Shown here: piece after piece, positions 4,384 through 62,819 of the stretch
Layout of the letters: every line of letters starts with the position of its first letter
How positions within the stretch are numbered: position 1 is the first letter of the stretch
Source: a phage
DNA length: 64,000 nucleotides
Sequence record: PZ386967.1
Reading direction: 5' to 3' (one strand)
Made by a program: the position numbers and the translations under genes
The notes under the pieces: model-generated
What the model saw: the letters and a program-made list of their open reading frames with translations, nothing else
The model's database searches: none
What the model was told of the DNA's origin: nothing

Positions 4384-4407
4384 TTCAATGTAAGATCGGG
4401 GTATAAT
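4384..4407 (+). promoter_or_regulatory. TTCAAT-box / TATAAT promoter upstream of gp32, with -10 inside hairpin CGGGGTA-TAAT-TACCCCG
   Basis: TTCAAT at 4384-4389, TATAAT at 4402-4407; 7-bp GC stem flanks the -10; gp32 ATG at 4482. Confidence 0.4.
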
Positions 4408-4481
4408 TACCCCGCTTTGTAGCAAACTGAAATACATGTAACAGAATAGCCCTGAGGGGCGGAAACAGAGGAAATTAAGAA

Positions 4482-5492
4482 ATGGGTAATTTATTCGATC
4501 GTCTGAAAGCATCTCGTGGCCAGCAAACTGAAGCAATGCAGGCGCGTCTTGCACAGCAAGGCCAGAAGTCCGGTTTCCAGAAGGATCCTCGCATCTGGAA
4601 ATGGACTTGGAACAAAGATGGTATCTCCGAGAATATCATCCGCTTCCTGCCAGTCCCGCTGGTAGACCTCAAGGCACAGGAAGAAGGGACGATCGATAAA
4701 GATCAGATCCTCACCCCTTGTGCCATGATCATGAAGCATCAGTTCCAAGGACCTGGTGGTTGGTACATTGAGAACTCACCTCAGACGTTCGGCAACGACG
4801 ATCCGGTGCGCGACCATGACCGTCCGCTGTGGGCGCAGCAGAAAGAAACGAACGACGAAAAGCTGAAGGACATCCTGAAGAAACGTCTACCCAACACCGA
4901 TTACTACGCTAACATTCTGGTGATCAAAGATGTCAACGTACCGGAAAACAACGGCAAGGTCTTCCTGTTGAAATTTGGTAACGCCATCAAGAAAATCCTG
5001 GATCAGGCGCAGAATCCTAAGTTCCCAACCGACCCTAAATTCGATCCGTTCGATCTGTGGGAAGGTGCCAACCTGAACCTGAAGCTCTTTGGCGAGCAGA
5101 AGAAGTTTGGGAACTGGGAAGGTCTGGTGGCAAACTTCAGTAAGGTGGTGTGGGAGAACCCTGCCCCGCTGAGTGATGACGAAGCGTATATGGAAGACGT
5201 CTGGTCTCGTGAGCATAGCCTGTTTGAATTCTTCAATCCGGCTAACTTCAAAGACTACGACACCCTGGAAAAGCGCCTGCGCAAAGTTCTGGCAATTCCT
5301 GATGACCAGCCTCTGGTTGAAGGTGGTGCAGCCACGATGGCTCATGCTCCTAGCACCCAGACTACACATCAGCCAACTGCTCAAGACAGCCTGAAACAGC
5401 AACAGGCCGCGCCGTCGCAGGCTCAGACTCAACCGGATGCCAGAAACACGGCTACCATTGATGAATTCGAGCAGTATCTCAAGTCTAACTGA
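4482..5492 (+). CDS. 32: single-stranded DNA-binding protein (T4 gp32 family)
   Basis: IRFLP, YYANILVIKDVNVPENNGKVF and WEGANLNLK match remembered gp32 blocks; GAGGAAA SD; acidic C-terminal tail. Confidence 0.85.
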   Translation: MGNLFDRLKASRGQQTEAMQARLAQQGQKSGFQKDPRIWKWTWNKDGISENIIRFLPVPLVDLKAQEEGTIDKDQILTPCAMIMKHQFQGPGGWYIENSPQTFGNDDPVRDHDRPLWAQQKETNDEKLKDILKKRLPNTDYYANILVIKDVNVPENNGKVFLLKFGNAIKKILDQAQNPKFPTDPKFDPFDLWEGANLNLKLFGEQKKFGNWEGLVANFSKVVWENPAPLSDDEAYMEDVWSREHSLFEFFNPANFKDYDTLEKRLRKVLAIPDDQPLVEGGAATMAHAPSTQTTHQPTAQDSLKQQQAAPSQAQTQPDARNTATIDEFEQYLKSN

Positions 5493-5498
5493 TCAAAC

Positions 5499-5527
5499 AA
5501 GCCATCTTCGGATGGCTTTTTATTTTC
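5499..5527. terminator. bidirectional rho-independent terminator between convergent gp32 and 5520..6464
   Basis: AAGCCATC-TTCG-GATGGCTT hairpin with T-run on plus strand (TTTTATTTT) and A/T-rich flank on the other side. Confidence 0.65.
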
Positions 5528-6464
5528 CCATCACGTCTTTCAATATCCCCAACAGGCTTGTCTTCTCCGCCGCCGTCAGGTTATCGTTGCCCATGATGTC
5601 ACGAGAGATACCTACCGAGATGCGCTCGAAGTCCTGTATGCTTATCCCAGCCAGGTTGTTTACAAGTTGGTCAAGCTGTTTGTAAGCCAGGAGAGCCTCT
5701 CCTGTGAAGTTCCCTTCTTTCACCTTGCGATAAAGCTGTCCGGCTTTTGAGGCCGCAGTTTCCCAGTCACCACTGGTAAGAGCGTCAGCAATACCGAGAG
5801 GAAGAAAATCGCTGGAAAGGCTGCGTGTTTCATATTCTGTCTCCGAAAGCACTTTGTTGTAAGAGAAAGAAATGTTGTACTGGTTGAACTGGTCTGTGGC
5901 ACCTTTATCCAGCTCAATAGAACTGAAATTTATTGGGTGAGCCTCGACGATGTAGACGCGGTGGACCACTTGATCTTCGGTGTCAAGCTGTTCAATGCAT
6001 ATGTCAGTCACGAAGTCTTCGTAATATCCCATTTTGGTGGTGTGTGGATCAAAGATCAGACTCTTCCACTTGTCCATCACAGACTTCTCATAATAGTCAT
6101 TGGCTAATAAGAATGACAAGTCGAGGTCGACGTTGGACTTGTTGTTCGGCATCTTGATGTGATTACCGTTGCTTGTCATTGGAGTGGTGTCGATACCAAC
6201 CCCTGGCAATGAGGCAACCATACACATCATCTGAAGGGAACGGGACGTCTGGTTTGTCCCTCCAAAGAAAGCGTTTACAATACGGGCTGACTGCTTAAAC
6301 AAGTCACCGAAAGATGAATTGGTTCTGTACGCCTTTCCGTCATTAGCCAGAGTGGCATTGGAGTCAAAGATCCCTGGTGGTAGAGGGATGGTCACTCTGA
6401 AGCGGTTCTTGCGCGACAAGCCCCGCTGTAATATCTGTGTGATAAAATTGCGATAGTCTTCCAC
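5520..6464 (-). CDS. tail tube / baseplate-tail-tube junction family protein (gp19/gp48/gp54-like, putative)
   Basis: N-terminal RFRVTIPLPPGIF...VASLPGVGI resembles the tail-tube fold signature; GTG start with GGAG SD; TATAAATA late promoter 34 nt upstream. Confidence 0.4.
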   Translation of the reverse strand: MEDYRNFITQILQRGLSRKNRFRVTIPLPPGIFDSNATLANDGKAYRTNSSFGDLFKQSARIVNAFFGGTNQTSRSLQMMCMVASLPGVGIDTTPMTSNGNHIKMPNNKSNVDLDLSFLLANDYYEKSVMDKWKSLIFDPHTTKMGYYEDFVTDICIEQLDTEDQVVHRVYIVEAHPINFSSIELDKGATDQFNQYNISFSYNKVLSETEYETRSLSSDFLPLGIADALTSGDWETAASKAGQLYRKVKEGNFTGEALLAYKQLDQLVNNLAGISIQDFERISVGISRDIMGNDNLTAAEKTSLLGILKDVMGK

Positions 6465-6497
6465 GGTGAGGACTCCACTTAAATAAAATAACTGTTA

Positions 6498-6505
6498 TTA
6501 TTTAT
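6498..6505 (-). promoter_or_regulatory. T4-type late promoter TATAAATA (minus strand) upstream of 5520..6464
   Basis: Plus tatttata = minus TATAAATA, exact T4 late consensus, 34 nt from the start codon. Confidence 0.45.
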
Positions 6506-6517
6506 AGGAGTTGACAA

Positions 6518-7222
6518 ATGGCAAAGAATGCAGCTGGCGAAGAAGATCCGTTGCTGTTTCCGGCCGAGATGGACGCCCCCGAGCTGGTCAAGCGTTACAT
6601 CCGCAAGTACCGTCAACACTTCGGTCCAGAGGCGAAGCGTAACATCCGCCGTTCGCATGTGTGGTTCATGGAGCGTGTGTCTAAGGACGCCAACCTGAAT
6701 CCCAACCATATGAAACAGGCGTTTGCTGATCACAAACGTCCGGTACAAGGTGTGCGGTATATAGTCGGGCGTATGTTCTATTTCAAATATGATGCTCTGA
6801 CGAAGAATGAACTACCCTACTGGGATATGTACCCTCTGGTGTTCTTCTTCAACTTTGTCAAGGGTGATGGTATCACCTTTGGAGAGAAGGGTGTGACATA
6901 CCTCTGGGGACTCAACATGCACTACCTGCCACCGAAGCTCAGGCTGTTGGTGTTTGAGGATCTGATTAAGTTGCGTAACGAACGGGCATACCGCTCAAAG
7001 ACGCGTCTGAAGCTCACCTGGGAAGCCCTGAAGCGCTTCGCCAACCATCCGCTGTACAATCACTGTGTGAAGCTGTACCGCGCCGATCAGTTCCGTTCAC
7101 AGCTTTACGAGATTGAACCACAGTACTGGGAGATCGTTCTCTTCATGCGCACGGCTCGCTTCCAGAAACAGAGCCAGATGTCTGTGTGGAAAGATGCACG
7201 TCGTATGCATAAGAAGAAATAG
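6518..7222 (+). CDS. hypothetical protein
   Basis: 234-aa ORF with GGAG SD; basic C-terminus; no recognisable motif. Confidence 0.45.
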   Translation: MAKNAAGEEDPLLFPAEMDAPELVKRYIRKYRQHFGPEAKRNIRRSHVWFMERVSKDANLNPNHMKQAFADHKRPVQGVRYIVGRMFYFKYDALTKNELPYWDMYPLVFFFNFVKGDGITFGEKGVTYLWGLNMHYLPPKLRLLVFEDLIKLRNERAYRSKTRLKLTWEALKRFANHPLYNHCVKLYRADQFRSQLYEIEPQYWEIVLFMRTARFQKQSQMSVWKDARRMHKKK

Positions 7223-7285
7223 TTCTATAACCTGTTCCGAGGGATAATTCGTGAACGGGTAATCCTTCAACAATGAGGCTATAAC

Positions 7286-8331: not shown

Positions 8332-8423
8332 CGTAGAAAGTTAATATTCACGCAAGTTCGCGCTCCACTTGGTCGCGCACCTTATAACACTAAGGTGTTA
8401 ACTTTCTTTTCAATAAAAAGTAG

Positions 8424-8452
8424 TTTACATCTATGAAAATGCAGTATATTAT
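8424..8452 (+). promoter_or_regulatory. sigma70-like promoter (TTTACA -17 bp- TATTAT) in AT-rich 190-bp intergenic region
   Basis: TTTACA at 8424-8429, TATTAT at 8447-8452, upstream of 8521..9360; a TTCAATAAA box lies just upstream. Confidence 0.45.
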
Positions 8453-9360: not shown

Positions 9361-9390
9361 TTTAAGTTCAGAAACTGTTCAAAAGATGAA

Positions 9391-9424
9391 GGGGCTGCTA
9401 TAATAGCAGCTCCTTTTGTTTATT
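9391..9424 (+). terminator. terminator hairpin that also carries a TATAAT in its loop (terminator/promoter unit)
   Basis: GGGGCTGCTAT-AAT-AGCAGCTCC followed by TTTTGTTTATT; TTCAAA box 15 nt upstream of the TATAAT. Confidence 0.5.
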
Positions 9425-15611: not shown

Positions 15612-15639
15612 TTCAATAAAGCGGGTCATAGGGTATAAT
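15612..15639 (+). promoter_or_regulatory. TTCAAT-box / TATAAT promoter with -10 in hairpin loop (TCATAG-GGTATAATT-CTATGA)
   Basis: TTCAAT 15612-15617, 16-nt spacer, TATAAT 15634-15639; upstream of 15672. Confidence 0.45.
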
Positions 15640-15671
15640 TCTATGATCTGAATGTAAACCAGGAGCACATC

Positions 15672-16022: not shown

Positions 16023-16337
16023 ATGTCTGTAGAACAAATCGGTTTTTATGTACTACCTTCTGATCCTGAATCCCGTCGCAAGCTGATAGGTGCGATTGAA
16101 AACTGTCGTGCCGCCCAGGTCCGCATCAAGTCGGAACAGACTTTCATTACTGAGACTCTGGCCGAGCTGGCGAAAGAGACGGGCATCAAGGCCAGCGACC
16201 TGCGCAAGGTTGTATCCGACCGCGCCAATGGAACTTACCATAAGACGATCGAAACGAGCGAGAAATATCAAGACTTGTACGAGTCTCTATTCCCGAACGC
16301 CAAGCCCGATCGAGATCCGAATGCCAGTGGCGAATAA
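16023..16337 (+). CDS. hypothetical protein
   Basis: 104-aa ORF. Confidence 0.35.
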   Translation: MSVEQIGFYVLPSDPESRRKLIGAIENCRAAQVRIKSEQTFITETLAELAKETGIKASDLRKVVSDRANGTYHKTIETSEKYQDLYESLFPNAKPDRDPNASGE

Positions 16338-16464
16338 GTCAATAGAACACCAAGAAGCCCAGTCAAGTACTGGGCTTTTTAACTTCAATAACTTTACTTT
16401 CAAGAAATAATCGCCTAATATTTAATCTGTATTGAAGAGTTACAACTACATCATGAGGCTGGAA

Positions 16465-17983: not shown

Positions 17984-18160
17984 CATGCGCAAGTATTTCA
18001 ACTGGCTGTTGGCAAGCCCCTGAGCACCGAAATCCGTTGTCTGATAGATGCGATCGATGTTGAAATGGAATGGCGAGCGCCGGATTAATCGCACAAAGGC
18101 TCAGGCCGAAATTAAAATCGTGAAGAAGTCCACAAGGCTCTGGGTTTCATAACAAATAAT

Positions 18161-18186
18161 TCAATAAACTATTCACCCATATAATA
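18161..18186 (+). promoter_or_regulatory. TTCAAT-box / TATAAT promoter upstream of 18214
   Basis: AATTCAATAAAC, 14-nt spacer, TATAAT; GAAGGAA SD before ATG at 18214. Confidence 0.45.
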
Positions 18187-18213
18187 CATGGGAACTTACA
18201 GAAGGAACAGACC

Positions 18214-18572: not shown

Positions 18573-19181
18573 ATGTCACTGAAAAACTTACTGAAACGCA
18601 TCTTCACCACTGTTGAAGCTAACGTCACCGCAGGTCTGGATAAACTGACCGACACCGAAAAGCGCCTGAACCTGGCTGCTCGCAAGCTGTCTGACGAAAT
18701 CCGTCGCCTGGAGGAAGCCCGTGTCACCAACGTCCGCAACGGCGTCAAGCTGAAGAAGACCGCAGAACAGAACCTAAGTGAAGCCGCCAAGCGCGAAGAA
18801 GTTCTGAAGGACGCCATCGCTCGTGGTGTCACACCAACCCGCGCCGACGCCCTGATTATTCTGCATCGCCGCCGTATCGGTGAAGCCCTGTTGGCTCAGG
18901 TGAAGGACATCGAAGCAAGCAGCGACAAACTGAACGGTGCGATCATCCAGCTGGGTGACAAACTGGACGAAGTCAAGTCCAATCTCGAGCTGGTTCGTGT
19001 TCAGAAAGAGACGAACGACCTGGGTCTGGTGCTCCCTGAAGATATCGATTATGCCGCTGGTATGACCACCATCGATATCGATGCCATCCTGCGCGAAACC
19101 GAAATCGCTGATTCGAGCTACTCCGCCAACAGCCCGTCGTCTATCGAAGCCGACAACTACCTCGCCAGCCTGAGCAAATAA
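18573..19181 (+). CDS. PspA/IM30-like coiled-coil protein (putative)
   Basis: N-terminal RIFTTVEANVTAGLDKLTDTEKRLNLAARKLSDEI resembles remembered PspA N-terminus ([23 protein letters not shown]...); about 200 aa, heptad-rich. Confidence 0.35.
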   Translation: MSLKNLLKRIFTTVEANVTAGLDKLTDTEKRLNLAARKLSDEIRRLEEARVTNVRNGVKLKKTAEQNLSEAAKREEVLKDAIARGVTPTRADALIILHRRRIGEALLAQVKDIEASSDKLNGAIIQLGDKLDEVKSNLELVRVQKETNDLGLVLPEDIDYAAGMTTIDIDAILRETEIADSSYSANSPSSIEADNYLASLSK

Positions 19182-19195
19182 CATCAGAGGGGCTT

Positions 19196-19756
19196 ATGCC
19201 CCTCTATCACTTCGGGGATCTTATGAACATTATTGATTCTTTCAACATACTCACTGGTGCTACTGCTTTCGTTCTTTTGTGTATTGGCAGTGCCTGGCTG
19301 AGAGGTCGACTGAAGAAACGGGAAGTCTTGAAGCGAGACCGTATTGACATCCACAAAATAATGCTGGATAGAACTTGCAAACATGGCCCCAGCGGTGACT
19401 TCCGTTTGTATTATTTGTCGGATGAAGTCACCCCTTCGGAATTCTTCAATTATGCGATGGCTGGGTTGCGATGGCCGGAGATAAACGGCGTTGTTCAGAA
19501 AACTGATTACGTGTACGTGAATATGGCTTCCCTGAACAAGCACGGGGAACGCGACGATCTGCGGATGTGGTTCTTTGGAGGAGAGGAACAAGAAGAGTTT
19601 GTAAAAGAACTTGCTCTCTTGCTTAACACGTACGAAAAGGCTGGTTGCCCACCACTCGAGGTGGAAGAATCAGTAGAATCTATCGTGGCTCGCGCTCGTG
19701 GTGAAACCGTGGATCTACTGAACAAATACGGCTTTGTCTGGGCGGAGGGTTCATGA
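19196..19756 (+). CDS. membrane-anchored protein (hypothetical)
   Basis: N-terminal TM helix (LTGATAFVLLCIGSAWL); follows the PspA-like gene. Confidence 0.4.
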   Translation: MPLYHFGDLMNIIDSFNILTGATAFVLLCIGSAWLRGRLKKREVLKRDRIDIHKIMLDRTCKHGPSGDFRLYYLSDEVTPSEFFNYAMAGLRWPEINGVVQKTDYVYVNMASLNKHGERDDLRMWFFGGEEQEEFVKELALLLNTYEKAGCPPLEVEESVESIVARARGETVDLLNKYGFVWAEGS

Positions 19757-19810
19757 TGGATACAGAAGTCATTATCAGCCAAGCAAGATCCCACACCCGC
19801 CAATAATCTA

Positions 19811-19832
19811 TTGAAGTCCCCAGGGTTATAAT
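19811..19832 (+). promoter_or_regulatory. TTGAAG-box / TATAAT promoter inside an 11-bp hairpin that also overlaps the ligase RBS
   Basis: CCAGGGTTATA...TATAACCCTGG stem (19820-19852); TATAAT at 19827-19832; GGAG of the SD lies in the 3' stem. Confidence 0.4.
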
Positions 19833-19861
19833 AGCAGCACATATAACCCTGGAGACACCGC

Positions 19862-27531: not shown

Positions 27532-27581
27532 GGTCTCAGCCCTTAAATAGATAGAGTGTTATGGCTATTTAGGACTAGATT

Positions 27582-28834: not shown

Positions 28835-29341
28835 TTATTTGTCAGGGTTCACTAAAACAGGGGTGGATACCAGTTCGCCGTTCTTCACAGAATGCTGGAC
28901 TACAACAAACTGATCGACCATGCGATATACTTCAATTCCAGCAGCCAGCATGTCAATAATGCCGTCTATGATACGATATGGTCGGTCATAGAACACTTTA
29001 GCGATCTTGCCACTGTCGATAATACGACGGGTGCACTCTGGGCATGGACTATGAGTGACAAACATCACTAGGCCACAACAGTCTTCAGTGTGCTGGGGGA
29101 GTTTGCTCAGAGCATTCTCCTCGGCGTGGATAACACCCACCGATACCAGTTGACCGTCTACTTCCTTCTCACAGACATTAGGAGCGCCAGGAGCAGTCCC
29201 GTTCCAACCGATAGACAGGGGCTGGTCAACACGCGGGTCAACGATAACACAGCCGACCTTCAGGCGCTGGGCATAGCTGGACAGGGCGTATGCATGAGCC
29301 GAGCGCATATGCGCAAATAACATACGGGGTTTGATAGCCAT
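28835..29341 (-). CDS. cd: dCMP deaminase (cytidine/deoxycytidylate deaminase family)
   Basis: Zinc motifs HAEENAL and SPCPECTRRI; ORF track start 29344 is GTG, adjacent ATG at 29341. Confidence 0.7.
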   Translation of the reverse strand: MAIKPRMLFAHMRSAHAYALSSYAQRLKVGCVIVDPRVDQPLSIGWNGTAPGAPNVCEKEVDGQLVSVGVIHAEENALSKLPQHTEDCCGLVMFVTHSPCPECTRRIIDSGKIAKVFYDRPYRIIDGIIDMLAAGIEVYRMVDQFVVVQHSVKNGELVSTPVLVNPDK

Positions 29342-29655
29342 CACATCACCAGTTTCTTTTCAAGGAGGAAGATCATGTCGTCTTGGTCTGCACGACCAAA
29401 GATCTGACCCATGGCGACCATCTGGTGGACTTCCCTGACAATGATTTCTTTACCAGGAGTAACTTCATCCAGGTCCATGATAGTGCTGACGCGGTCTACC
29501 ATGCGCGGCGGGTGATTAATGTAGCGCTGCAGGTACTTCTCGCGAGTGGCAATCAGGTTGTTCAGCTCGGAGATTTCAGACTCTTCTTCTGAGAAGCGCT
29601 TTTCCTTCGCCTGCAGTTCAGCCAGGCGCTCATACATTTCTTTTAATGGGGTCAT
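29341..29655 (-). CDS. hypothetical coiled-coil protein
   Basis: 104-aa ORF; promoter-like box/hairpin about 36 nt upstream. Confidence 0.4.
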   Translation of the reverse strand: MTPLKEMYERLAELQAKEKRFSEEESEISELNNLIATREKYLQRYINHPPRMVDRVSTIMDLDEVTPGKEIIVREVHQMVAMGQIFGRADQDDMIFLLEKKLVM

Positions 29656-29724
29656 TTCCGGTTCCTCTTAATAAACGAAGGGAAGTATATACTCCCCCTT
29701 CTTCAATAACCGCTGAATCTTTAT

Positions 29725-32509: not shown

Positions 32510-33124
32510 TCACCCCTCCTCGTCGATGATTTCTTGCTCATCTTCGACAATCATGATACCTTCTGCGTCCAGATGAGAAAGTTCCATCAGATCATTATCG
32601 AATCCGTCTCCTTCCCTGATATAGAAGACTGGGACGACACGACGGCGGGTCTCTTCATACACGCTTTCAGAGATTCGATTGATATGGCGTACTACACTGT
32701 AGAGGTTCAGGCCACCAATACCACAGCCGATAGCAGGCAGGCCGACATAGACAGTTTCGTCTTTAGTTGCTTCCACAATTTCATGCACCTGCTCAAACAG
32801 GGTCTGAACAGAACTGATGACAGACGGCATGCGAGCGTTCGGGCCTGGATAAAACTGAGTGTAGAGGTTCGCGCCCCAAACGCCCTTGCTGTGGTCAAAT
32901 GCATAGGACATACCACCCAGGCGTTGCTCTGGACCACGAGGGTCGTTCGCATCGACTTCGCGCAGCGCTGGGAAGTTGTTGCCGATGTGCAGAGCAATGC
33001 CCGCACCCATGGTAGACCAGCAGTTGGCACCGTGGGCAAAGATGTCGATCAGATTGAAGCTACAGGCGGCTTTCAGTAGATCGCCGCCATTGATTACATA
33101 TGTGGTCATGCGTACTGTCTCCAT
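32510..33124 (-). CDS. macro-domain protein (ADP-ribose binding/hydrolase family)
   Basis: VINGGDLL...IDIFAHGANCWSTMGAGIA matches the macro-domain N-A-A-N...G-G-G-V signature. Confidence 0.55.
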   Translation of the reverse strand: METVRMTTYVINGGDLLKAACSFNLIDIFAHGANCWSTMGAGIALHIGNNFPALREVDANDPRGPEQRLGGMSYAFDHSKGVWGANLYTQFYPGPNARMPSVISSVQTLFEQVHEIVEATKDETVYVGLPAIGCGIGGLNLYSVVRHINRISESVYEETRRRVVPVFYIREGDGFDNDLMELSHLDAEGIMIVEDEQEIIDEEG

Positions 33125-33348
33125 TCAATAATGCTGTTGTCAACACATGACACTTGGATGATGCCTGTGCGGTGGTGATAATCAGTCATCTGCATGATAA
33201 AGTTGTTCCCATTGCGGATAATGGTGTTGACAACGATACCCTTGGCAGCAAGGCGTATTACAATGGCAGTGCAAAGACGGTCCATGTAACCGGACACAGA
33301 ACCTGGTTCGAAGCATCGCTCGAACAGATTTTCAAATTCTGGGCTCAT
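33106..33348 (-). CDS. hypothetical protein
   Basis: 80-aa ORF. Confidence 0.3.
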   Translation of the reverse strand: MSPEFENLFERCFEPGSVSGYMDRLCTAIVIRLAAKGIVVNTIIRNGNNFIMQMTDYHHRTGIIQVSCVDNSIIEWRQYA

Positions 33349-33398
33349 TTGATGTTACCAAACAAGAGGTCGAGGCGGTAATAATACCGCCTTTTTCT

Positions 33399-33809
33399 TC
33401 AATAGAGGTCTTCGGAAAAGAGTTCGCGGAATGGGGTTGTCTTCAGGCGCACCTGATTGATCTGTCCAGCTTCACGGGCTACGATGCATGCCTCTTCACG
33501 AGTAAGGAAGTTGCCCTGGTTGTCGATGAATCCCTGTTCGCGGGTATGGGTGGATTTAATGACGCCTGCCTCTTTCAGGATCTTGAGCTGGTTGTTCATG
33601 AATCGGCTGTGGTGACGGTCAGCAACGACGATTACATCACCATATTTGTTGGCGGCAGCGACCACACGACGCTCCCAGGCACCTTCGGCAGGAAGTTCAC
33701 GAGTGTACAGGGGAATCATCGTATCACCGATGTCATCCCCCTTCACCTGTGAGAACAACTTGCCTTCAGTTCCCGTTGGGAGTTCACGAAAATATCCCAG
33801 TAATTTCAT
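33399..33809 (-). CDS. hypothetical protein
   Basis: 136-aa ORF. Confidence 0.35.
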   Translation of the reverse strand: MKLLGYFRELPTGTEGKLFSQVKGDDIGDTMIPLYTRELPAEGAWERRVVAAANKYGDVIVVADRHHSRFMNNQLKILKEAGVIKSTHTREQGFIDNQGNFLTREEACIVAREAGQINQVRLKTTPFRELFSEDLY

Positions 33810-39103: not shown

Positions 39104-39649
39104 CTAGCCCAGAAACACTACTAAAGTCAAATTAGTGAGGGCGCTGCGGCCTTCCCGCAGCATTTCATGCGCAGATGCAAGGCGCTTGGGGTCATGCAAC
39201 GTATCAGAGAACACGATGATGTTTGCTTTATCGATGCCCGTGCCCATGTAATGGGAGATGGTTGTCGTGTGCTGTTTCTTGTCTACATCGGGCAATGATA
39301 CATCCGCGCCTGCTCGGGAGCGGAAGAAAGAATCGCGTTCACTAACGCTATGGAAGACACCCATGATGTTGAGGTTGTTCTCTGTCTGGAAATCATAGGA
39401 CAGAATCTTCTTCAGCGCGGCGGTGTGCCCAGTCTGGCGCAGCATGCGATAGTACAGTATGTTTCCAGAACAGGTGGGGTCCGTCACACCTCCCCTCGAT
39501 TGGCGATCTTTCTGGATTTCATACGCATCCAGGATAAGTTGTTGGACCATTTCAATATGGGCAGTCAGGGAGATTTCGACTTTACGTTTGACCATGGATT
39601 TCATTTGGTGTATCCTCAGATAGGTTCCGCTCATGGGGAACGGTTCCAT
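39104..39649 (-). CDS. hypothetical protein
   Basis: 181-aa ORF; start uncertain. Confidence 0.35.
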   Translation of the reverse strand: MEPFPMSGTYLRIHQMKSMVKRKVEISLTAHIEMVQQLILDAYEIQKDRQSRGGVTDPTCSGNILYYRMLRQTGHTAALKKILSYDFQTENNLNIMGVFHSVSERDSFFRSRAGADVSLPDVDKKQHTTTISHYMGTGIDKANIIVFSDTLHDPKRLASAHEMLREGRSALTNLTLVVFLG

Positions 39650-39722
39650 TATACACCAAATGCTGGAAATGAAAAAGAGGCCGGAGCCTCTTTTGTTAAC
39701 CCATGATCATCGCGTTCATGGC

Positions 39723-46223: not shown

Positions 46224-46250
46224 ATAATACGGTGGGCGTCTTCAATTGAA
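46224..46250 (-). promoter_or_regulatory. TTCAAT-box / TATTAT promoter upstream of rIIA-like gene
   Basis: Minus-strand TTCAAT (46250-46245), 15-nt spacer, TATTAT (46229-46224); adjacent hairpin 46251-46272 likely terminates the upstream gene. Confidence 0.4.
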
Positions 46251-46279
46251 AAAGCCCTCGGCTGAGGGCTTTGTTCAGA

Positions 46280-46969: not shown

Positions 46970-47421
46970 TTCGTTTCCCCCTTGGCAGCATAGGACAGTG
47001 CCTGAACAATCATTACAGCCAGATCGATCGGCGAGTAGGTGCTGTTCAGATCTTCTCGAACACTCTGCTCGATTTCTTCATCAGACTGGACCACAGGACA
47101 GTTCTTCCCCTGGCGACGGCGTTCTGTGTTGATCATATCACGCAGGAGCAGATCGGTGAAGGAGTACTCGTCAAAGTTCTCCAGGTATTTCTGAATCCCA
47201 GTGGATACAGGGGTTGGCTCCGGTTCCTGTTCCCCAGGATCTTTCAGGGCAGCAACAGTGGCATCAATATCCCACAGAGGGTTCAGCAGTAACAGAAGAT
47301 TAACTGTTTCTCCTGACTCTGAAGTCGGGTTCTTTCCCAGCACCTTGTACAGATTCTTCAGGGTGCTGTCGAAGGTCAGAACGGTCTGCGCCAGTTCTTC
47401 ATAAGTTGGTTTGGTAGTCAT
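46966..47421 (-). CDS. hypothetical protein
   Basis: 151-aa ORF. Confidence 0.35.
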   Translation of the reverse strand: MTTKPTYEELAQTVLTFDSTLKNLYKVLGKNPTSESGETVNLLLLLNPLWDIDATVAALKDPGEQEPEPTPVSTGIQKYLENFDEYSFTDLLLRDMINTERRRQGKNCPVVQSDEEIEQSVREDLNSTYSPIDLAVMIVQALSYAAKGETK

Positions 47422-47480
47422 CAGCGTTTGCTCCGGCGTTTGTTCTTCATCTTTCTTGGCTTGTCTGTCATGTTCCTGTC

Positions 47481-47526
47481 CACGAAAAAGGGATAGAGCA
47501 ATAATACCCTATCCCCTTTTATTGAA
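47481..47526 (-). terminator. terminator hairpin fused to a TTCAAT-box / TATTAT promoter (terminator-promoter unit)
   Basis: GGGATAG...CTATCCC stem followed (minus) by TTTTTCG; minus TTCAAT at 47526-47521 and TATTAT within the loop. Confidence 0.45.
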
Positions 47527-50101: not shown

Positions 50102-50141
50102 CAAAAAGAAAGGGGAACGGGCTAATATTAACCCATTCCCC
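50102..50141 (-). terminator. terminator hairpin with TTCAAT-box promoter elements
   Basis: GGGGAACGGG / CCCATTCCCC stem, minus-strand TTTCTTTTTG after it; TTCAATAAA box upstream on minus strand. Confidence 0.45.
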
Positions 50142-50167
50142 TTTATTGAAGAACGCAATCCGCAGTC

Positions 50168-50338: not shown

Positions 50339-50374
50339 GATAATATCCTCGCTTTATAGGCGAGGATATTTATA

Positions 50375-51971: not shown

Positions 51972-52171
51972 TTTGGTTCCTTGAATATTTTATAGCCAGC
52001 AGCGCCGATAGCCATAATCGCGCCGATACAATACAACATGGTCAGGTTCATCTTCTCTGAGGTTGTTAAGTCCAGAGGGGTGAAATGATAGGCTAGGGCA
52101 GTACACATTGAAACGGCTGCCATAACCAGACCAATGAACAACAGATAATTAGACAACCGTTTCATGATCAC
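51968..52171 (-). CDS. small membrane protein (hypothetical)
   Basis: 67 aa, two hydrophobic helices. Confidence 0.3.
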   Translation of the reverse strand: MIMKRLSNYLLFIGLVMAAVSMCTALAYHFTPLDLTTSEKMNLTMLYCIGAIMAIGAAGYKIFKEPK

Positions 52172-53085
52172 CCCTTCTTCATCAGGTCAAGGAGAGAGCG
52201 CGACGCTGCCTTCGTTGCTTCTGGCTGGGCGCTCGCCTTGGTTTTAGTTTTGGATGCCTTCTGCGGCTTCTCAGGGACTCTGTGCGCCAAAGGATCCTGG
52301 CCGCCGATTTCACGAGTCATCGGATTGGTTTCACAGTAGGCGTAGAAGTCTTTGGTGTCCATGTTAACTTCACGCAGTTCGGACCGTATCTGATGACAAA
52401 TCGCATTACCCACAACCCACAGCGGGGCGTCGTATGGGAGCACCGCCAACTCGGACTGCTGTTTGGTCGTGAACTCCTGGGTGTTGGTCTCTGGCGCTTT
52501 ATACAGGATATCCTGTCCGCTGTAATCATCAACAGCCACAGTGAAGCCCAGCGCCAGCATTTCGGCCTTCGACTTCTCAAACTCCTTGGAGTAAGATTCG
52601 TTGCGTGACCAGCCGGAGTTCCCTGCTTCTTTACCAGATCGACCACGGATACGAGCATCGTACTGATAGCGGTCGGGGTACGCAAAGTACAGCAGCGCCA
52701 ATGATTCAATCGGATAGTTCTTGAACATCCATTCAGGACGCCATTTGTCCGACAGCATGAGGGGTTCACCCTCACACACCAGAGTGTATCCCTGAACCAA
52801 CCAGCACTTGATTAGATCACGAGCAATATCGCCTGAGCCTGTAGCAGCATGGATTGCATCCATTGAAGTCCAGGAAGCCAGGCCGGATTTGTTAGACACG
52901 GTGTACTGTCCAACGAAGATTAACTTCAGCTCTCCGAACTTCAGGCCAAACGGGCGAGTCTTGTCACCAACGGTGTAGGTCAGTTCGGTAGGCTCCAGCT
53001 TCGTACGGAGCCATTCGATGAACTGGACCACTCTCGTACCCTTGCCCGTGGCCGAGGTGCCTTTCACTACGATAATTTTTGCCAT
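52168..53085 (-). CDS. P-loop NTPase / kinase (putative)
   Basis: Walker A VVKGTSATGKGT at N-terminus; 305 aa. Confidence 0.45.
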   Translation of the reverse strand: MAKIIVVKGTSATGKGTRVVQFIEWLRTKLEPTELTYTVGDKTRPFGLKFGELKLIFVGQYTVSNKSGLASWTSMDAIHAATGSGDIARDLIKCWLVQGYTLVCEGEPLMLSDKWRPEWMFKNYPIESLALLYFAYPDRYQYDARIRGRSGKEAGNSGWSRNESYSKEFEKSKAEMLALGFTVAVDDYSGQDILYKAPETNTQEFTTKQQSELAVLPYDAPLWVVGNAICHQIRSELREVNMDTKDFYAYCETNPMTREIGGQDPLAHRVPEKPQKASKTKTKASAQPEATKAASRSLLDLMKKG

Positions 53086-54526: not shown

Positions 54527-54553
54527 CTGTTTGTCAAAGGGTTAACAGGGGGA

Positions 54554-54579
54554 ATTATATCCCCCTTTGGTTTATTGAA
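54554..54579 (-). promoter_or_regulatory. TTCAAT-box / TATAAT promoter with -10 in loop of GGGGGA/TCCCCC hairpin
   Basis: Minus TTCAAT 54579-54574, 14-nt spacer, TATAAT 54559-54554; immediately downstream of DNA polymerase stop. Confidence 0.4.
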
Positions 54580-57579
54580 TCAACCTTTCTTCTTTTGCAT
54601 CATGGCAAGAAGGTTCACACGGCGCTTGTGCGACCAGCCGACCACGTCAAGGATGGACTGAATCGGGTCAATGAAGGACTTCTCAAAGGCCGCCTGATAA
54701 TCCACCCATTTGCCCAGACCAAGCTCCTCAGGGAAGAACTCAGGATATGCGAAGTAATTCTGGCCGAATGGGTTGCCTGGCTTCAACAACACCATCTGTA
54801 CCTTATCACCCGACTCGATCATCGGTAGACCCAGATCTTCGTTCTTCTCAACCAGACGGTTGTAGCCCACACACGCCTTGGCAGCAAAATGAGCACCAGA
54901 GATGAACGATCCGTCAGCAGCCACACACTTCTCTATGTCGGACACGCCGGAAGCCTTGGCGATATCGTCTACAGAGAGTTTCATGTACTCCTCTTTGTAC
55001 TGGGAGATGAGCGCCTGTACTTCCTCTTCAGTGCCGAGTAGGATCTTCTCATAGCACTTGACAAGACGCTCACGACACCATTCCGGCGTGGTGGACTTGC
55101 GGGCTTCCAGACCTTTGAACTTGATCTTCGGCTTCTCGTACTTGATACCCTCACTGTCGTACACGGCCATGGCATACATCTTCTTGGCTCGCCAGACAGC
55201 GGCTGACGCAATGACCTCACGCTCCCATACCATGCGCTGTTCAAATCCGTTCATGGTGTTACACAGAAGCTGTGCCCACTCATTGGTCTTCGGCTGGTAG
55301 TTGTCTTTGATCCATTGGTCGATATTATCAACCATAGCATGATGGTCAGTAACATCAGGCCACAACTGCTTGACAAGACGCTCAATGCAGATGTAGTTGG
55401 AGTCGGTATCACCTGCGATGACGAAGTCCTGGCCTGTTGTACCACACAGCTTGTTCAGATAGTCATCAGTGTAACGCTTGTTCCACTTGTTGATCAGCTG
55501 ACCGGATGTGGTGATGGCTTCGGCAATGTTGAGGTTGAAGTACTCTTTGAACCAGACGTTCGAGATAGCGCCATAACCTGCGTTCATCAAGATCTTCAGA
55601 CCTTGCTGTAGGGTGTCTTGAGCAACGCCCAGATCTTCCCACTTCTTCATCACTTCGGTCAGTGCATCAAGATCAATGTTCTTGTGCTCTTCATACCACT
55701 CTGGGTCATAGTAGCGAGACTTCATGGCAGACTCAAGATGGAAGTCGCCCTTCGACATCTCTTTACACCAGCCAGCCCACTGCTCATACTTCAGACCCTT
55801 GGCCTTCTCTACTTTACGGTCGCTGTAGATACCACGCATGATTTCAGACAGGAACGACATCTTCTCGTTGCTGAAGAATTGAACGTTCGGCGTGAACGAC
55901 ACGTTGTAGCGGCGCAGGGTTTCAAAGTGGAACTCACCCAGGGCAACCAACTCATCAACAACCTGCAGGCGTTCGTCAACCGCACGCAACAGCTTGTCGT
56001 GAAGGGCTTTCATCAACCGACGTTTGTGCATCGGCGTTGCCATGTTATTCATCTGAGCAGCCAGCTCTTCACACATAGCCTCAATAATCTCGCGGCGCTG
56101 GTGTTTGTCGCCAACGATAGTCTCTGGACCGAGGTTGTACTGCTGAATGATGTGAGGATACAGGGAATTCAAATCTTCCGAGAAGACCCAGAAGTAGATT
56201 CCTGGTGTCACATCCATGACGTATGCACCCTCAAAGTCGGTCGGACCATCGTATACACGCTGGATCTTAGGCACTATCCCCTTCTCGTACAGGCGATAGT
56301 AGCACATGGCCAGCCACGGAGCCACAGTTCCCAGACCGTCTTCATAGTTGGACTTGGTGCGGTAGGCCAGGACGAACATCAGCTGGAGCAGGCGCAGCTT
56401 CTGTTCAAGTCGCCATACCAGCTTAACGTCTTTGATACCATATCGGGTGTGTTTGCAGTAGTCGTTGAAGTACAGATCAAAGAGCGACTTGCTCTCACTG
56501 TAGTCCATCTTCTTCTCACCCAGCTCACAATACGCAATCCAGTCAAGAGAGTAGCGTTCACGGGTGGTGTACGTGTGTTTCTTGTAGATCTGCATATAAT
56601 CGAGCATAGGACAGCCCACGAACTGATACGTCGTGATATCGCCCTTCTTATCGCGAATGATACGCTTCTTAATGATACCCCAAGGACTGAGGCGCGACGT
56701 TTCAGCCTCACCCAGAACCTGATTCATGCGCTCAACAAGATACGGGCTATCGAACGTTTCAATGTTCCAGCCTGTCCAGCCGTCGAACTGACGCTCCGAC
56801 CAGAAGTCAAGGAAAGATCGCAGCAGATCTTGTTCGGTGGTGAACTCCTGATAAACAACCTCAAGGCCGCCGATCTCTTTGTCTTCGGTGTCGTATGCGA
56901 ATTTGTTACGATCTTTGGCACAGGGCATACCCCAGACCATGAACTTATTGGTCGCCATATCCTGAAGCTGGATCAGGGTAATGGGGAACGCCGCATTCAT
57001 GTCTTGGGTGATCTTGCCGTTGCTGTCAATGATAGGGAACTGATCAGTGACGTTGTTGCTGATGAAAGAACCAGGGAAGTGCTCACGGACAAAGTCATGG
57101 TTGGCCAGCACTTGTTTATGGAAGCGGCGAATGCGCGCCTCATTCCCTTTGAACGTCTGCTGCTCAATAGTTGGGTGAGGGAATGGACCTTTGGTCATCT
57201 TTCCGTCTTTCCACCCGGCGGAGAATACTTCGATATCGAGGTTAGCAATATGGATGTTGGAGTAATCCGGCTCAATCTTTCCAGGAAAGCTATGGGCGAT
57301 GAACTGGTATGCATAATCGGTCTGCCCATAAATGGCAGCACCCTGGACTTCCTTGTACTCTTCAAGATAGTTGTCAGCGTCACGCATGGAAGGGAACTGC
57401 TTGGCTACCAGGGGTTCATTGAGAAGGCCGACCTTTTCAACATTTGAATAGTCAGCCGTGGGTAAATAGAGAGTGGGTTCGAATTTCTTTTTCAACAGAC
57501 GGCGATTACCCATGTCATCTGCAATTCGAATCAACAGGTCATTGCCCCTGCGGGCAACGTTCGTATAGAAAACGGTCAT
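54580..57579 (-). CDS. 43: DNA polymerase, family B (T4 gp43-like)
   Basis: Exo I NLDIEVF, Exo II NIETFDSPYL, pol motif A DLNSLYP, motif B KILMNAGYG, motif C AGDTDS; GGAG SD; 999 aa. Confidence 0.9.
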   Translation of the reverse strand: MTVFYTNVARRGNDLLIRIADDMGNRRLLKKKFEPTLYLPTADYSNVEKVGLLNEPLVAKQFPSMRDADNYLEEYKEVQGAAIYGQTDYAYQFIAHSFPGKIEPDYSNIHIANLDIEVFSAGWKDGKMTKGPFPHPTIEQQTFKGNEARIRRFHKQVLANHDFVREHFPGSFISNNVTDQFPIIDSNGKITQDMNAAFPITLIQLQDMATNKFMVWGMPCAKDRNKFAYDTEDKEIGGLEVVYQEFTTEQDLLRSFLDFWSERQFDGWTGWNIETFDSPYLVERMNQVLGEAETSRLSPWGIIKKRIIRDKKGDITTYQFVGCPMLDYMQIYKKHTYTTRERYSLDWIAYCELGEKKMDYSESKSLFDLYFNDYCKHTRYGIKDVKLVWRLEQKLRLLQLMFVLAYRTKSNYEDGLGTVAPWLAMCYYRLYEKGIVPKIQRVYDGPTDFEGAYVMDVTPGIYFWVFSEDLNSLYPHIIQQYNLGPETIVGDKHQRREIIEAMCEELAAQMNNMATPMHKRRLMKALHDKLLRAVDERLQVVDELVALGEFHFETLRRYNVSFTPNVQFFSNEKMSFLSEIMRGIYSDRKVEKAKGLKYEQWAGWCKEMSKGDFHLESAMKSRYYDPEWYEEHKNIDLDALTEVMKKWEDLGVAQDTLQQGLKILMNAGYGAISNVWFKEYFNLNIAEAITTSGQLINKWNKRYTDDYLNKLCGTTGQDFVIAGDTDSNYICIERLVKQLWPDVTDHHAMVDNIDQWIKDNYQPKTNEWAQLLCNTMNGFEQRMVWEREVIASAAVWRAKKMYAMAVYDSEGIKYEKPKIKFKGLEARKSTTPEWCRERLVKCYEKILLGTEEEVQALISQYKEEYMKLSVDDIAKASGVSDIEKCVAADGSFISGAHFAAKACVGYNRLVEKNEDLGLPMIESGDKVQMVLLKPGNPFGQNYFAYPEFFPEELGLGKWVDYQAAFEKSFIDPIQSILDVVGWSHKRRVNLLAMMQKKKG

Positions 57580-58486: not shown

Positions 58487-58581
58487 AATATTTATTGAAT
58501 AAAGTTTACTTCTTCAATAACTGGCGTATACTTCTAATTGTAGTACGAACAAACAACAATCTGAAGAGAAGGAAATACATC

Positions 58582-59156: not shown

Positions 59157-59182
59157 AGGGGCTTAACGCCCCTTTTCTTATT
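59157..59182. terminator. bidirectional terminator between convergent genes
   Basis: AGGGGC-TTAA-GCCCCT with T-runs on both strands. Confidence 0.6.
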
Positions 59183-59636: not shown

Positions 59637-59780
59637 GTTGGGTTCCTCAGTGGGTTAGCCATATGGGGTATTTAGGCTTCCCGCTTGGCGAGGTCTGGTT
59701 TGTACAGGACGCCTCTCGGAAATATTGGAGGAAGGTTTTCATAGATACCCCACACGGATTGTATGGGGTATTCAGGAGGG

Positions 59781-60974: not shown

Positions 60975-61044
60975 TCTATTTTCTCCTGTAGACATTGGCT
61001 TATCATAGTGTATCTACAGGAGTATAGAAAAGGAGAATCTCGGA

Positions 61045-61689
61045 TTACTTCTTGAACAGACGAAGGAACTTCATCATGTTATCCATGAAAGTTGGCTTCT
61101 TGGCCTTTTGTTTTACTGGAGCACCCTGATCATTCAGAACACGACTGGCCGGAGGAGTTGGATTCAAAGATTTAATTGCCTGATTCAAATCGGAATTATC
61201 CACGACACCCACTTCTTCACCGACCGTAACGCATGGTTTGATTAGAACGGATTTCTTAGACTGCTCATACTGATGAGCGATATCCAGATATTTCTTGCGC
61301 TCTGCGTAGAAATCAACAGACTTGACCTTGCGACGACGCCAATTGGCGCTTTCTTCGCCATAGAAATCATATCCGTTTCTGATCAGCCAGTGTACGGCTT
61401 GTTCAAAAGAACCGAAGACCATAAGTGGAGCACCCTGGCCTTTCTCAGATTGTTCCAGGCTACCATAACCCATCAATACAACCTGGCCTTTGATACTCAA
61501 ATCAAACGTCATACCAAGGTTCGGGATGTTTTTATCGCGGCGGAAGAACCCGCCATCACGGTAGACGTAAACAGGCGACAGGAACTCATTCAGAGTACGC
61601 TTGACACCCTTGTATCGGAAGAGTCTGACAATTGGAGGGGTGTCACGGGAAATCACTTCGTTCAATTCCCAGATAGAAACATTACGCAT
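61045..61689 (-). CDS. hypothetical protein
   Basis: 214-aa ORF; last protein gene before the tRNA region. Confidence 0.4.
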   Translation of the reverse strand: MRNVSIWELNEVISRDTPPIVRLFRYKGVKRTLNEFLSPVYVYRDGGFFRRDKNIPNLGMTFDLSIKGQVVLMGYGSLEQSEKGQGAPLMVFGSFEQAVHWLIRNGYDFYGEESANWRRRKVKSVDFYAERKKYLDIAHQYEQSKKSVLIKPCVTVGEEVGVVDNSDLNQAIKSLNPTPPASRVLNDQGAPVKQKAKKPTFMDNMMKFLRLFKK

Positions 61690-61805
61690 CGGTGTATCCT
61701 CAAATCTATGACAGGGGGTTAACGGTTAAATTTTAAACCCCCTTTGTATCATTGAACAAACTATGATAAAGGAGGACATGCTTGGGTCGATAAGAAGATA
61801 ATAAG

Positions 61806-61842
61806 ACAGGGATAAAAAGAAAGCCGGATAGGATATCCGGCT
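61806..61842 (-). terminator. rho-independent terminator closing the minus-strand tRNA cluster
   Basis: AGCCGGATA-GGA-TATCCGGCT followed on minus strand by TTCTTTTTATCC. Confidence 0.55.
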
Positions 61843-62058
61843 ATACCACATCGATGGGTTGGGTTGAAAGACTACACGCTTACACTGGTACTACCCTATG
61901 GGAGAGCGCGTCAGGAGTCGAACCTGAAGTCGTCGACGTAGAGAAAGCTATTTGCATTTCACTATCCTCGCCGCGATTTTCTTAACTTCCTAAACACCCC
62001 GATTACGAGAGAGTCGACATGCACATCTTCTAACTCTTCAGGAAGTCACGCCCGTAAT

Positions 62059-62147
62059 TTGGCGGAAGGTGAAGGATTCGAACCTTCGGGGGCTAAAAGC
62101 CCCACTCGATTAGCAGTCGAGTCCCTTAAACCTCTCGGGCAACCTTC
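62059..62147 (-). tRNA. tRNA-Ser (anticodon GCU), class II with long variable arm
   Basis: Hand-folded: acceptor GGAAGGT/ACCTTCC, anticodon stem CTCGA/TCGAG with loop CTGCTAA, variable hairpin GGGGC-TTTTA-GCCCC, T-arm GAAGG-TTCGAAT-CCTTC, discriminator G, encoded CCA. Confidence 0.8.
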
Positions 62148-62368
62148 CAATTTGGACGGGCTTCACACCCGATTGAGCATTTGATCTGCTGTAGCCCAAC
62201 TCCCCGCGCTTCTCAGCGCCGATTGGTTAACTGGCGACCAGTGCCTTCTGGTTCGATCTCCTGGAACTTTACAGGCTTTGCGCCCGACCATTTCTGGAAG
62301 TTGGGGCATCGTTTCCGATGTGGAGTCACCCCATTTTATACACAGCTGGCTGCAACGCTTACTGTGTT

Positions 62369-62452
62369 TGGTGTGAGTGGATGGATTCGAACCACCGCGC
62401 TGTTACGGGGAGATTTACAGTCTCCTGCATTCGACCGCTCTGCCACACTCAC
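62369..62452 (-). tRNA. tRNA-Tyr (anticodon GUA)
   Basis: Acceptor GTGAGTG/CACTCAC, anticodon stem GGAGA/TCTCC loop CTGTAAA, long variable arm, T-loop TTCGAAT, discriminator A, CCA. Confidence 0.75.
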
Positions 62453-62709
62453 ATTTGGTCTGCCGCTGCGTGCTGGGCCACGCTCGAGGACATCGGCCAT
62501 CCTTCCTCAGCTAATCCACGCAGCGGTAGATTTGTATCAGAGTGTCCGGTGTAGCAACCCGTGAGGTGCGCACTACTGTAGCCTCTACACTCTGAATTTG
62601 GTGGGCGTTACTATCGTCGTCTTCGGATTCCGTTCGGCTATTGGACAGAGGCTTGGAGCTTGTCGGTCGCGTACTTTATGCCTATTCACTTTCGTTCACA
62701 CCCATTGTC

Positions 62710-62785
62710 TGGCGACGATGGCAGGACTTGAACCTGCGACATACGGTTTAACAGACCGCCGTTCTACCGACTGAACTACATCGTC
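62710..62785 (-). tRNA. tRNA-Asn (anticodon GUU)
   Basis: Acceptor GACGATG/CATCGTC, D-arm GTTC-AGTCGGTA-GAAC, anticodon loop CTGTTAA, T-arm GCAGG-TTCAAGT-CCTGC, discriminator G, CCA. Confidence 0.85.
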
Positions 62786-62794
62786 TTGCAAATC

Positions 62795-62819
62795 ACTATA
62801 CCATATAAAGTTTATTGAA
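62795..62819 (-). promoter_or_regulatory. TTCAAT-box / TATAGT promoter positioned to start transcription just upstream of tRNA-Asn
   Basis: Minus TTCAAT 62819-62814, 13-nt spacer, TATAGT 62800-62795, 9 nt before the mature tRNA 5' end. Confidence 0.45.

Follow-up and report, generated by a model that had tools for sequence, protein, structure and literature searches.

The closest described counterparts of the sites analysed here are a sequence motif of Ackermannviridae phages and a promoter design of T4-type phages. A paper on the Agtrevirus-like phage EspM4VN lists, in the part that names them, TTCAAT[N14]TATAAT and CTAAATAcCcc as 'two unique regulatory motifs' (PMC7283392). In phages RB49 and phi1, the promoter-early stem-loop (PeSL) was shown experimentally to have both promoter and terminator activities (Arbiol et al. 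2010, PMC2839356). In order, a PeSL has the upstream stop codon, set in AT-rich sequence, then a sigma70-type promoter, next a GGGG...CCCC stem-loop, and finally a Shine-Dalgarno sequence and a start codon; the stem-loop lies mostly in the interval from the -35 to the -10 or over the -10, G-T pairs are tolerated in it, and transcription arriving from upstream is terminated or attenuated (PMC2839356). Here we analyse a recurrent element, a TTCAAT box upstream of a TATAAT-type -10 that often sits within a hairpin, in a 64,000-nucleotide (nt) stretch of phage DNA (record PZ386967.1; the window, taken at its full length). Because TTCAAT[N14]TATAAT is already named as a family motif in that part of the EspM4VN paper, the core observation is not new but already published for Ackermannviridae.

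On sequence evidence, we consider it likely that the sites serve an Ackermannviridae phage as conserved promoters of its pre-replicative (early or middle) genes, packed as terminator-promoter units. The window is Vi1-like (Ackermannviridae) phage DNA: an 8-kb stretch of it is 97.5% identical to Escherichia phage vB_EcoM-ZQ1 (Ackermannviridae, Aglimvirinae; hereafter ZQ1) and also matches about 280 records of Agtrevirus, Kuttervirus, Limestonevirus and Taipeivirus-type phages. Genes were mapped by transferring the ZQ1 annotation and adding open reading frames (ORFs) in the gaps and four tRNAs, which gave about 95 genes on 89.5% of the DNA and a non-coding share of 10.5%. The gene content is rich in replication, recombination and nucleotide metabolism (gp32, UvsX, gp41, ligase, DNA polymerase, topoisomerase II, thymidylate synthase and dUTPase), and further includes rIIA/B, many small ORFs, a tRNA cluster and a few baseplate genes.

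The box and its -10 in the window and the family

The sequence-only reading of this DNA had proposed that the motif would exceed its frequency in shuffled sequence, and this is what we observed directly. The exact pair TTCAAT-N10-20-TATAAT occurs five times in the window against 0.04 expected, a count reached by none of 100 shuffles; three copies have N14 spacing (3212, 18160 and 54554), joined by N12 and N16 copies. About 16 variants of TTCAAT[N14]TATAAT with one or two mismatches were also found in intergenic DNA of the window. The longer word TTCAATAAA is present in 8 copies (0.56 expected), all of them in non-coding DNA and all except one oriented to the downstream gene. Motif discovery on upstream regions gave the same picture, with unbiased k-mer enrichment of the oriented regions placing TTCAATAA and TCAATAAA on top (TTCAATAA, 9 versus 0.18; p = 4e-13). 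A relaxed two-box scan of the window returned 34 matches against 12.7 +/- 3.0, about half of them intergenic.

We count about 19 credible intergenic sites in the window, serving gp32, the nucleotide-metabolism operon, ligase, rIIA, the deoxyribonucleotidase, tRNAs and small ORFs. They lie 10-90 nt ahead of the start codons of pre-replicative genes, and none falls in the late structural block. Similarly, the complete ZQ1 genome holds 28 matches that deviate from the twelve specified bases at no more than one position, and none of them precedes late structural genes. Orientation, position, absence from the late block and conservation across genera thus all fit the promoter-like character that had been claimed. 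Each of the twelve sites originally put forward as sharing the TTCAAT/TATAAT layout is present, at or within 1-5 nt of the coordinates given for it, and both example strings were found. The layout holds at all 12, with the first half-box degenerate at 19811 and 29690; the site at 62795 does stand upstream of a gene, which is tRNA-Asn and not protein-coding. Seven sites (7223, 8409, 16384, 33381, 39648, 58505 and 61002) were absent from that earlier list. In the numbering of the window, the sites, followed by one intragenic copy, are:

4384-4418, plus strand: gp32 promoter cassette; TTCAAT-N12-TATAAT at 4384-4407, hairpin CGGGGTA/TACCCCG at 4393-4418 around the -10.
7223-7260, plus strand: site before hypothetical gene 7286; TTCTAT-N14-GATAAT, hairpin 7230-7260 with the -10 in its loop.
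8409-8452, plus strand: TTCAATAAA box, then sigma70-like TTTACA-N17-TATTAT (8424-8452), with a terminator-like hairpin just upstream; conserved in orthologues.
9378-9421, plus strand: site heading the kinase, thymidylate-synthase, dNMP-kinase and dUTPase operon; TTCAAA-N15-TATAAT within terminator hairpin 9384-9421 with a U tract; the first box is TTCAAT in all relatives.
15612-15650, plus strand: site after gp41; TTCAATAAA-N-TATAAT (N16 from TTCAAT), hairpin 15622-15650 without a U tract.
16384-16421, plus strand: TTCAATAAC adjoining TTTACT-N17-TAATAT; stand-alone terminator 16355-16377 just upstream.
18160-18192, plus strand: exact TTCAAT-N14-TATAAT; weak 5-bp hairpin CCCAT/ATGGG at 18176-18192.
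19806-19856, plus strand: DNA ligase cassette; ATCTATTGAAG-N-TATAAT, -10 in the 5' arm of hairpin 19816-19856.
29678-29711, minus strand: site upstream of hypothetical gene 29341-29655; GGTTATTGAAG-N-TATATA(CT), hairpin 29678-29699.
33373-33407, minus strand: site upstream of gene 33106-33348; CTCTATTGAAG-N-TATTAT, hairpin GGCGGTA/TACCGCC at 33373-33392.
39648-39673, minus strand: site of the histone-like protein gene, a weak member; TTCATT-N14-TATAAT after a stand-alone terminator.
46224-46275, minus strand: rIIA cassette; a terminator hairpin comes first, its T run continuing into the palindromic box TTCAATTGAAG, with N-TATTAT after it.
47485-47526, minus strand: 47501 cassette; TTCAATAAA-N-TATTAT (N14) within the 16-bp terminator hairpin 47485-47520 with a U tract.
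50109-50150, minus strand: 50125 cassette; TTCAATAAA-N-TAATAT (N14) within the 16-bp terminator hairpin 50109-50144 with a U tract.
54547-54579, minus strand: 54554 site, between the DNA polymerase and 5'(3')-deoxyribonucleotidase genes; exact TTCAAT-N14-TATAAT, conserved hairpin with a GGGGGA/TCCCCC stem and TATAAT as its loop.
58490-58532, plus strand: 58505 site; palindromic TTTATTGAATAAA, then TTTACT-N16-TATACT with TTCAATAAC in the spacer.
60983-61029, minus strand: 61002 site; TTCTAT-N16-TATGAT, -10 in the loop of hairpin 60983-61022, whose 3' arm includes the Shine-Dalgarno sequence AGGAG.
61713-61756, minus strand: TTCAAT-N15-TAAAAT; hairpin GGGGGTT.../...AACCCCC at 61713-61743.
62795-62819, minus strand: tRNA-Asn site; TTCAATAAA-N-TATAGT (N13), 10 nt upstream of tRNA-Asn, with no hairpin.
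3212-3237, plus strand: intragenic copy in the RuvC-like gene 2765-3355; exact TTCAAT-N14-TATAAT, 118 nt before gene 3355, also present in ZQ1; whether it is an internal promoter or a chance match is uncertain.

The distance from the box to the -10 ranges over 12-16 nt with a mode of 14. At N14 sites the box covers about -32 to -27, or reaches -24 with its AAA extension, and about 11 nt separate the end of TTCAATAAA from TATAAT. The box thus occupies a position like that of the T4 MotA box with another sequence, as had been noted. A longer form of the box, TTC(A/T)AT followed by TGAA or AAA(n), is suggested by the sites at 19811 and 29690, where TGAAG follows a degenerate first half-box (ATCTAT/GGTTAT), by the site at 33381, whose first half-box is likewise degenerate and precedes TGAAG, and by the rIIA box TTCAATTGAAG. 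Two sites carry palindromes. At 58490-58502 (plus strand) the box and its own reverse complement overlap in TTTATTGAATAAA, directly upstream of TTTACT-N16-TATACT, and the rIIA site has a similar palindrome, TTCAATTGAA (46241-46250); both hint at a candidate dimeric binding site.

To follow conservation, about 42 kb per genome was taken from about 21 genomes of the family (IMG/VR), and the regions upstream of orthologous genes were extracted. The box, -10 and hairpin recur across genera at gp32, 7223, the kinase operon, 15612, ligase, 50125 and 54554. The terminator-box--10 layout at rIIA, where the terminator stands upstream of the box and no hairpin encloses the -10, is universal in the genomes compared and identical in all genera. 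The stems covary. In about 20 genomes the gp32 cassette is kept with covarying stems, including a compensatory change from CGGGGTA/TACCCCG to GCGGGGGTA/TACTCCCGC. At 15612, TCATAG/CTATGA becomes TCATGA/TCATGA, with double compensatory changes at three pairs, and at 54554 GGGGGA/TCCCCC becomes GGGGGC/GCCCCC in distant relatives. Further examples are a CC/GG to GC/GC change at 7223 in Kuttervirus-like orthologues, an A-T to G-C change in the ligase hairpin, and covarying orthologues of the 50125 cassette. In two distant relatives the stem of the kinase site is unrelated, yet box-N14-TATAAT is still found in the loop and the U tract is also kept.

Several other features were observed near these sites. 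In the gp32 leader, a hairpin GCCC-TGAG-GGGC (4449-4460, plus strand) lies about 20 nt before the gp32 start codon and is kept in all genera compared with compensatory changes (GCCG...CGGC, GCCCC...GGGGC); by analogy with T4 gene 32, it is probably the autoregulatory translational operator of gp32. Next to the 54554 site, the DNA polymerase gene (54580-57579, minus strand) is a single intact ORF of 999 codons in the window and is broken up by inserted ORFs in ZQ1; the neighbouring homing-endonuclease gene (52168-53085) differs too, matching only part of the ZQ1 protein, at 48% identity. The 47501 cassette is directly followed by a 16-codon ORF (47421-47471, minus strand) that resembles both ends of a ZQ1 gene fused by an in-frame deletion; the full gene is kept in close relatives. 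A perfect sigma70 consensus, TTGACA-N16-TATAAT (12/12), occurs at 1856-1883 (minus strand), antisense within coding region 1720-2244 and facing the gp26 baseplate-hub gene; it is identical in ZQ1, and a 12/12 match should be rare by chance here.

Hairpins around the -10

To each -10 we applied a folding test on 56 nt, calling a hairpin strong at a minimum free energy of at most -14 kcal/mol and z of at most -2.5 against shuffles. A strong hairpin encloses the -10 at 13 of the 19 sites, so that the earlier description of the -10 lying in a hairpin stands for these; at 46224 (rIIA), the terminator is upstream of the box and not around the -10. As a control, strong hairpins surround 15 of 72 intergenic -10-like hexamers versus 18 of 265 coding ones (Fisher p = 0.001). 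In the usual geometry a G run precedes and a C run follows the hexamer (G-rich positions -4 to -2 before the -10), which lies in the apical stem and loop, its bases 1-2 closing the stem and its last four in the loop. The other sites have a stand-alone terminator just upstream of the box (rIIA, 8409, 16384 and 39648) or no hairpin (tRNA and 58505).

The hairpins differ between the strands. Across the family, 187 unique hairpin-bearing sites contain 208 G-T pairs versus 22 A-C 1x1 mismatches. Because RNAfold by construction favours G-U pairs, the stability of sense and antisense strands was also compared directly: the sense RNA is the stabler in 33 of 45 orthology groups (Wilcoxon p = 0.004), and several of the 12 exceptions are the same hairpins caught from the opposite strand. 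A DNA cruciform would need pairing on both strands; the asymmetry therefore points to selection of the hairpins as sense RNA, i.e. in the transcript coming from the upstream gene.

Three hairpins are textbook intrinsic terminators with a U tract (9384-9421, 47485-47520 and 50109-50144), two of which were flagged by an independent terminator scan (9388-9416 and 50144-50109). The U tract is partial at 4393-4418 and 29678-29699 and is lacking at 15622-15650, 54547-54566, 19816-19856, 60983-61022 and 61713-61743. Hairpins without a good U tract may be better described as attenuators or 3'-end stabilisers. Stem covariation, the sense-RNA and G-U bias, and the several U tracts with terminator flags agree with the suggestion of the sequence-only reading that these are compact terminator-promoter units. 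At two sites, 19816-19856 (plus strand) and 60983-61022 (minus strand), the 3' arm includes the Shine-Dalgarno sequence of the downstream gene (the ligase arm extends to GGAG) and the -10 is inside the hairpin; here read-through RNA could mask the ribosome-binding site, which promoter-started RNA could not.

We infer promoter activity, the use and timing of the promoters, and termination from these patterns, and propose the following arrangement. Each promoter would comprise a sigma70-type -10 hexamer (TATAAT or a close variant) and a family-specific box, TTCAATAA(A) or TTC(A/T)ATTGAAG, at about -32 to -24, placed in the short gap behind the stop codon of the preceding gene. For about two thirds of the sites, the -10 would be bracketed by a G-rich/C-rich inverted repeat whose 5' arm would occupy the spacer and whose 3' arm would occupy about -6 to +4, leaving the -10 within the apical stem and loop. 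RNA derived from upstream would fold into the stem-loop and be terminated or attenuated there. RNA from the embedded promoter would run on without the hairpin, which it could not form because it would start in or after the 3' arm. The outcome would be a terminator-plus-promoter insulator of about 40 bp between transcription units, the PeSL design of T4-type phages.

Rival readings and the reader of the box

The sequence-only reading had also raised structure-dependent promoter activity, in which the inverted repeat would extrude as a DNA cruciform or hairpin and present a single-stranded -10 in the loop, allowing opening without -35 contact; this would liken the sites to the hairpin promoters of the N4 virion RNA polymerase or to single-strand promoters of plasmids. 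The -10 in the apical stem and loop at 13 sites, the lack of a U tract in two thirds of the hairpins and the lack of a usable -35 are all consistent with such a mechanism. It is disfavoured by the strand asymmetry of the hairpins, given that a cruciform needs both strands, by the rIIA, tRNA and 18160 sites, which keep the box and -10 with no or a weak hairpin, and by RB49 and phi1, where the same layout acts as promoter plus terminator; we regard it as highly improbable. Alternatively, the box might be a feature of the RNA or terminator: it might serve bidirectional terminators as their A tract, which the other strand would read as a U tract, or be an AU-rich processing site of RNase E type beside a protective hairpin. 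The AAA of the box indeed pairs with the U tract at 47501 and 50125, and the antisense strand of 54547-54566 was flagged as terminator-like, with the box complement as its T run. Against this, the box is tightly spaced to the -10 and loosely to the stem base (0-8 nt), it is kept at the hairpin-less rIIA and tRNA-Asn sites and at 18160 with its weak 5-bp hairpin, and its exact copies face the downstream gene in seven of eight cases, all of which makes an RNA role very unlikely. Because of the tight spacing to the -10, the loose spacing to the stem and its presence at hairpin-free sites, we assign the box to the -10 as a putative promoter element, and not to the hairpin.

A third account concerns how such promoters would be read. 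The sites may be middle-type promoters served by sigma appropriation, in which a MotA/AsiA-like phage protein would bind TTCAATAA at about -30, replace the -35 contact and switch host polymerase to replication and nucleotide genes after a short early phase driven from a few canonical sigma70 promoters. The position and spacing of the box fit the geometry of T4 middle promoters and leave too little distance for a -35; the box is retained in genera that have different hosts, and the genes it serves are under middle promoters in T4. TTGACA/TTTACA-N16-18 promoters form a small class of their own; at three sites (8424, 16393 and 58505) the box stands beside a real TTTAC(A/T)-N16/17 promoter, and eight TTGACA/TTTACA-type sigma70 promoters have been reported for Ag3 and CBA120. 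Moreover, the authors of the CBA120 paper (2011) found no MotA or AsiA and called early and middle control unexplained. On the other side, matches to T4 MotA and AsiA by tblastn came only from about 1150 Straboviridae-type records; in ZQ1 tblastn gave nothing (best E 1.2 and 0.034), and profile hidden Markov models of both proteins against all six-frame ORFs of ZQ1 and the window reached best E values of 2.6 and 4.6. The MotA-like phage activator envisaged earlier thus has no homologue in these searches. The sites are also placed ahead of tRNAs and of many small ORFs, as is typical of immediate-early genes, and the sole annotated transcriptional regulator nearby (16023-16337, plus strand) is T4 DsbA-like. 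That 104-residue protein (PHROG 639, 'transcriptional regulator') is found in about 290 family records, is predicted to be expressed from the 15612 cassette, and lacks any structurally solved relative. Pfam PF11126, which we take to be the phage T4 DsbA-like dsDNA-binding family, is present in its homologues, and the protein was rejected on that ground as box binder or MotA analogue. Taken together, we hold sigma appropriation as a tentative possibility that falls short of even. Rather doubtful, on the same sequence evidence, is the specific proposal that Ackermannviridae redirect host RNA polymerase independently of MotA and AsiA through a phage protein that reads TTCAATAA at -30 in place of the -35 contact; if true, the T4-related phages would include a second system of middle promoters that arose independently. 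A phage factor or a remodelled sigma is considered because the 14-bp spacing is too short for a normal contact of sigma region 4 with a -35; whether such a factor would read the box, or host holoenzyme would act through the -10 alone, we judge to be about evenly balanced.

Several observations weigh against our preferred reading of the sites as pre-replicative promoters packed with terminators. None of the sites has an extended -10 TG, the 14-nt spacing misfits a sigma70 -35 contact by bringing the box too close for sigma region 4, and no activator for the box was found. At a few sites a weak canonical -35 occurs, shifted to a different register (e.g. TTGATT-N18-TATAAT, 54583-54554). Just about 10 of 33 hairpin groups carry four or more T among the 8 nt that follow the stem, and because of this most of the hairpins are not canonical intrinsic terminators. 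Virion DNA of Ackermannviridae contains hypermodified thymidine, which may bear on T-rich promoter elements. Our literature search for transcriptomics, mapping of transcription start sites or a time course for Ackermannviridae found nothing relevant, and a 2024 review of the family does not mention promoters or transcription. Two other promoter types were tried and rejected. A hidden canonical -35 in another register applies at few sites only and is not a general rule, and sigma32-type promoters (CTTGAAA...CCCCATNT), prompted by ATTGAAG and CACCCATAT, fit one site.

Comparison with known systems

The published Ackermannviridae motif and the element in the window are identical in sequence, spacing and phage family, the window holding three exact N14 copies and the variants described above. 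The 2012 proposal of the genus Viunalikevirus is reportedly the likely original source of the motif. The motif description in the EspM4VN paper, in the part that lists it, gives the pattern and coordinates only, beyond which the present analysis adds the TTCAATAA(A)/TTC(A/T)ATTGAAG extension, the 12-16 nt range and the -10 hairpins. The companion late-type CTAAATA box was also found before structural genes, as CTAAATACC (59667-59675, minus strand), CTAAATAGC (27564-27572, minus strand) and GTAAATAGCC (2720-2729, plus strand). More broadly, late-type boxes of the forms (C/G)TAAATA(G/C)CC and TATAAATA precede structural genes at 2720-2763, 27532-27581, 59666-59675, 6499-6506 and 50367-50374; those at 2720-2763 are two copies forming an inverted repeat, and those at 27532-27581 are two boxes in opposite directions between gp48 and gp4.

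With the motif a published family signature and the promoter within a stem-loop a published design in T4-type phages, little here is new in kind. The sites should help to annotate transcription units better in Ackermannviridae, phages that are in wide use for biocontrol and are engineered as reporters, and may offer compact, ready-made terminator-plus-promoter insulators for phage engineering. The box also gives a concrete entry to a question posed in 2011, namely what sets the timing of pre-replicative transcription in Vi1-like phages in the absence of MotA, AsiA, Alt and ModA.

The window sites resemble T4 middle promoters in having a conserved 9-bp box centred at about -28 to -30, about 11 nt from a sigma70 -10 and with no -35, and in standing ahead of replication and nucleotide-metabolism genes. 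They differ in the box itself, which is TTCAATAAA or TTCAATAA(A) with no TGCTT, whereas the T4 MotA box is (a/t)(a/t)(a/t)TGCTTtA, and in the regulators, as T4 encodes MotA and AsiA. By these features of sequence and gene content, the window sites are not T4 middle promoters. A further T4 precedent is a promoter inside a hairpin that masks the ribosome-binding site, as in genes e, soc, 49 and I-TevI. The sites at 19816-19856 and 60983-61022 share this geometry, with a Shine-Dalgarno sequence in the 3' arm and the -10 within the hairpin, but it applies at only two of the 13 hairpin sites, and the internal promoters of T4 are late or middle.

In layout the sites match the PeSL, in that the stem-loop lies between the promoter boxes or overlaps the -10 at 13 of the 19 window sites. 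Cassettes 47501, 50125 and 18160 adjoin gene-content differences; in a check for recombination of the PeSL kind, one clean indel (18575-19769) was inspected, and it is not flanked by cassettes, its left breakpoint having none. PeSLs have a canonical -35 at normal spacing, whereas the upstream element in the window is TTCAAT at 12-16 nt. PeSLs share about 100 bp and recombine into mini-circles, in contrast to the window cassettes, which share short boxes only, and they belong to T4-type Straboviridae, whereas the sites described here belong to Ackermannviridae.

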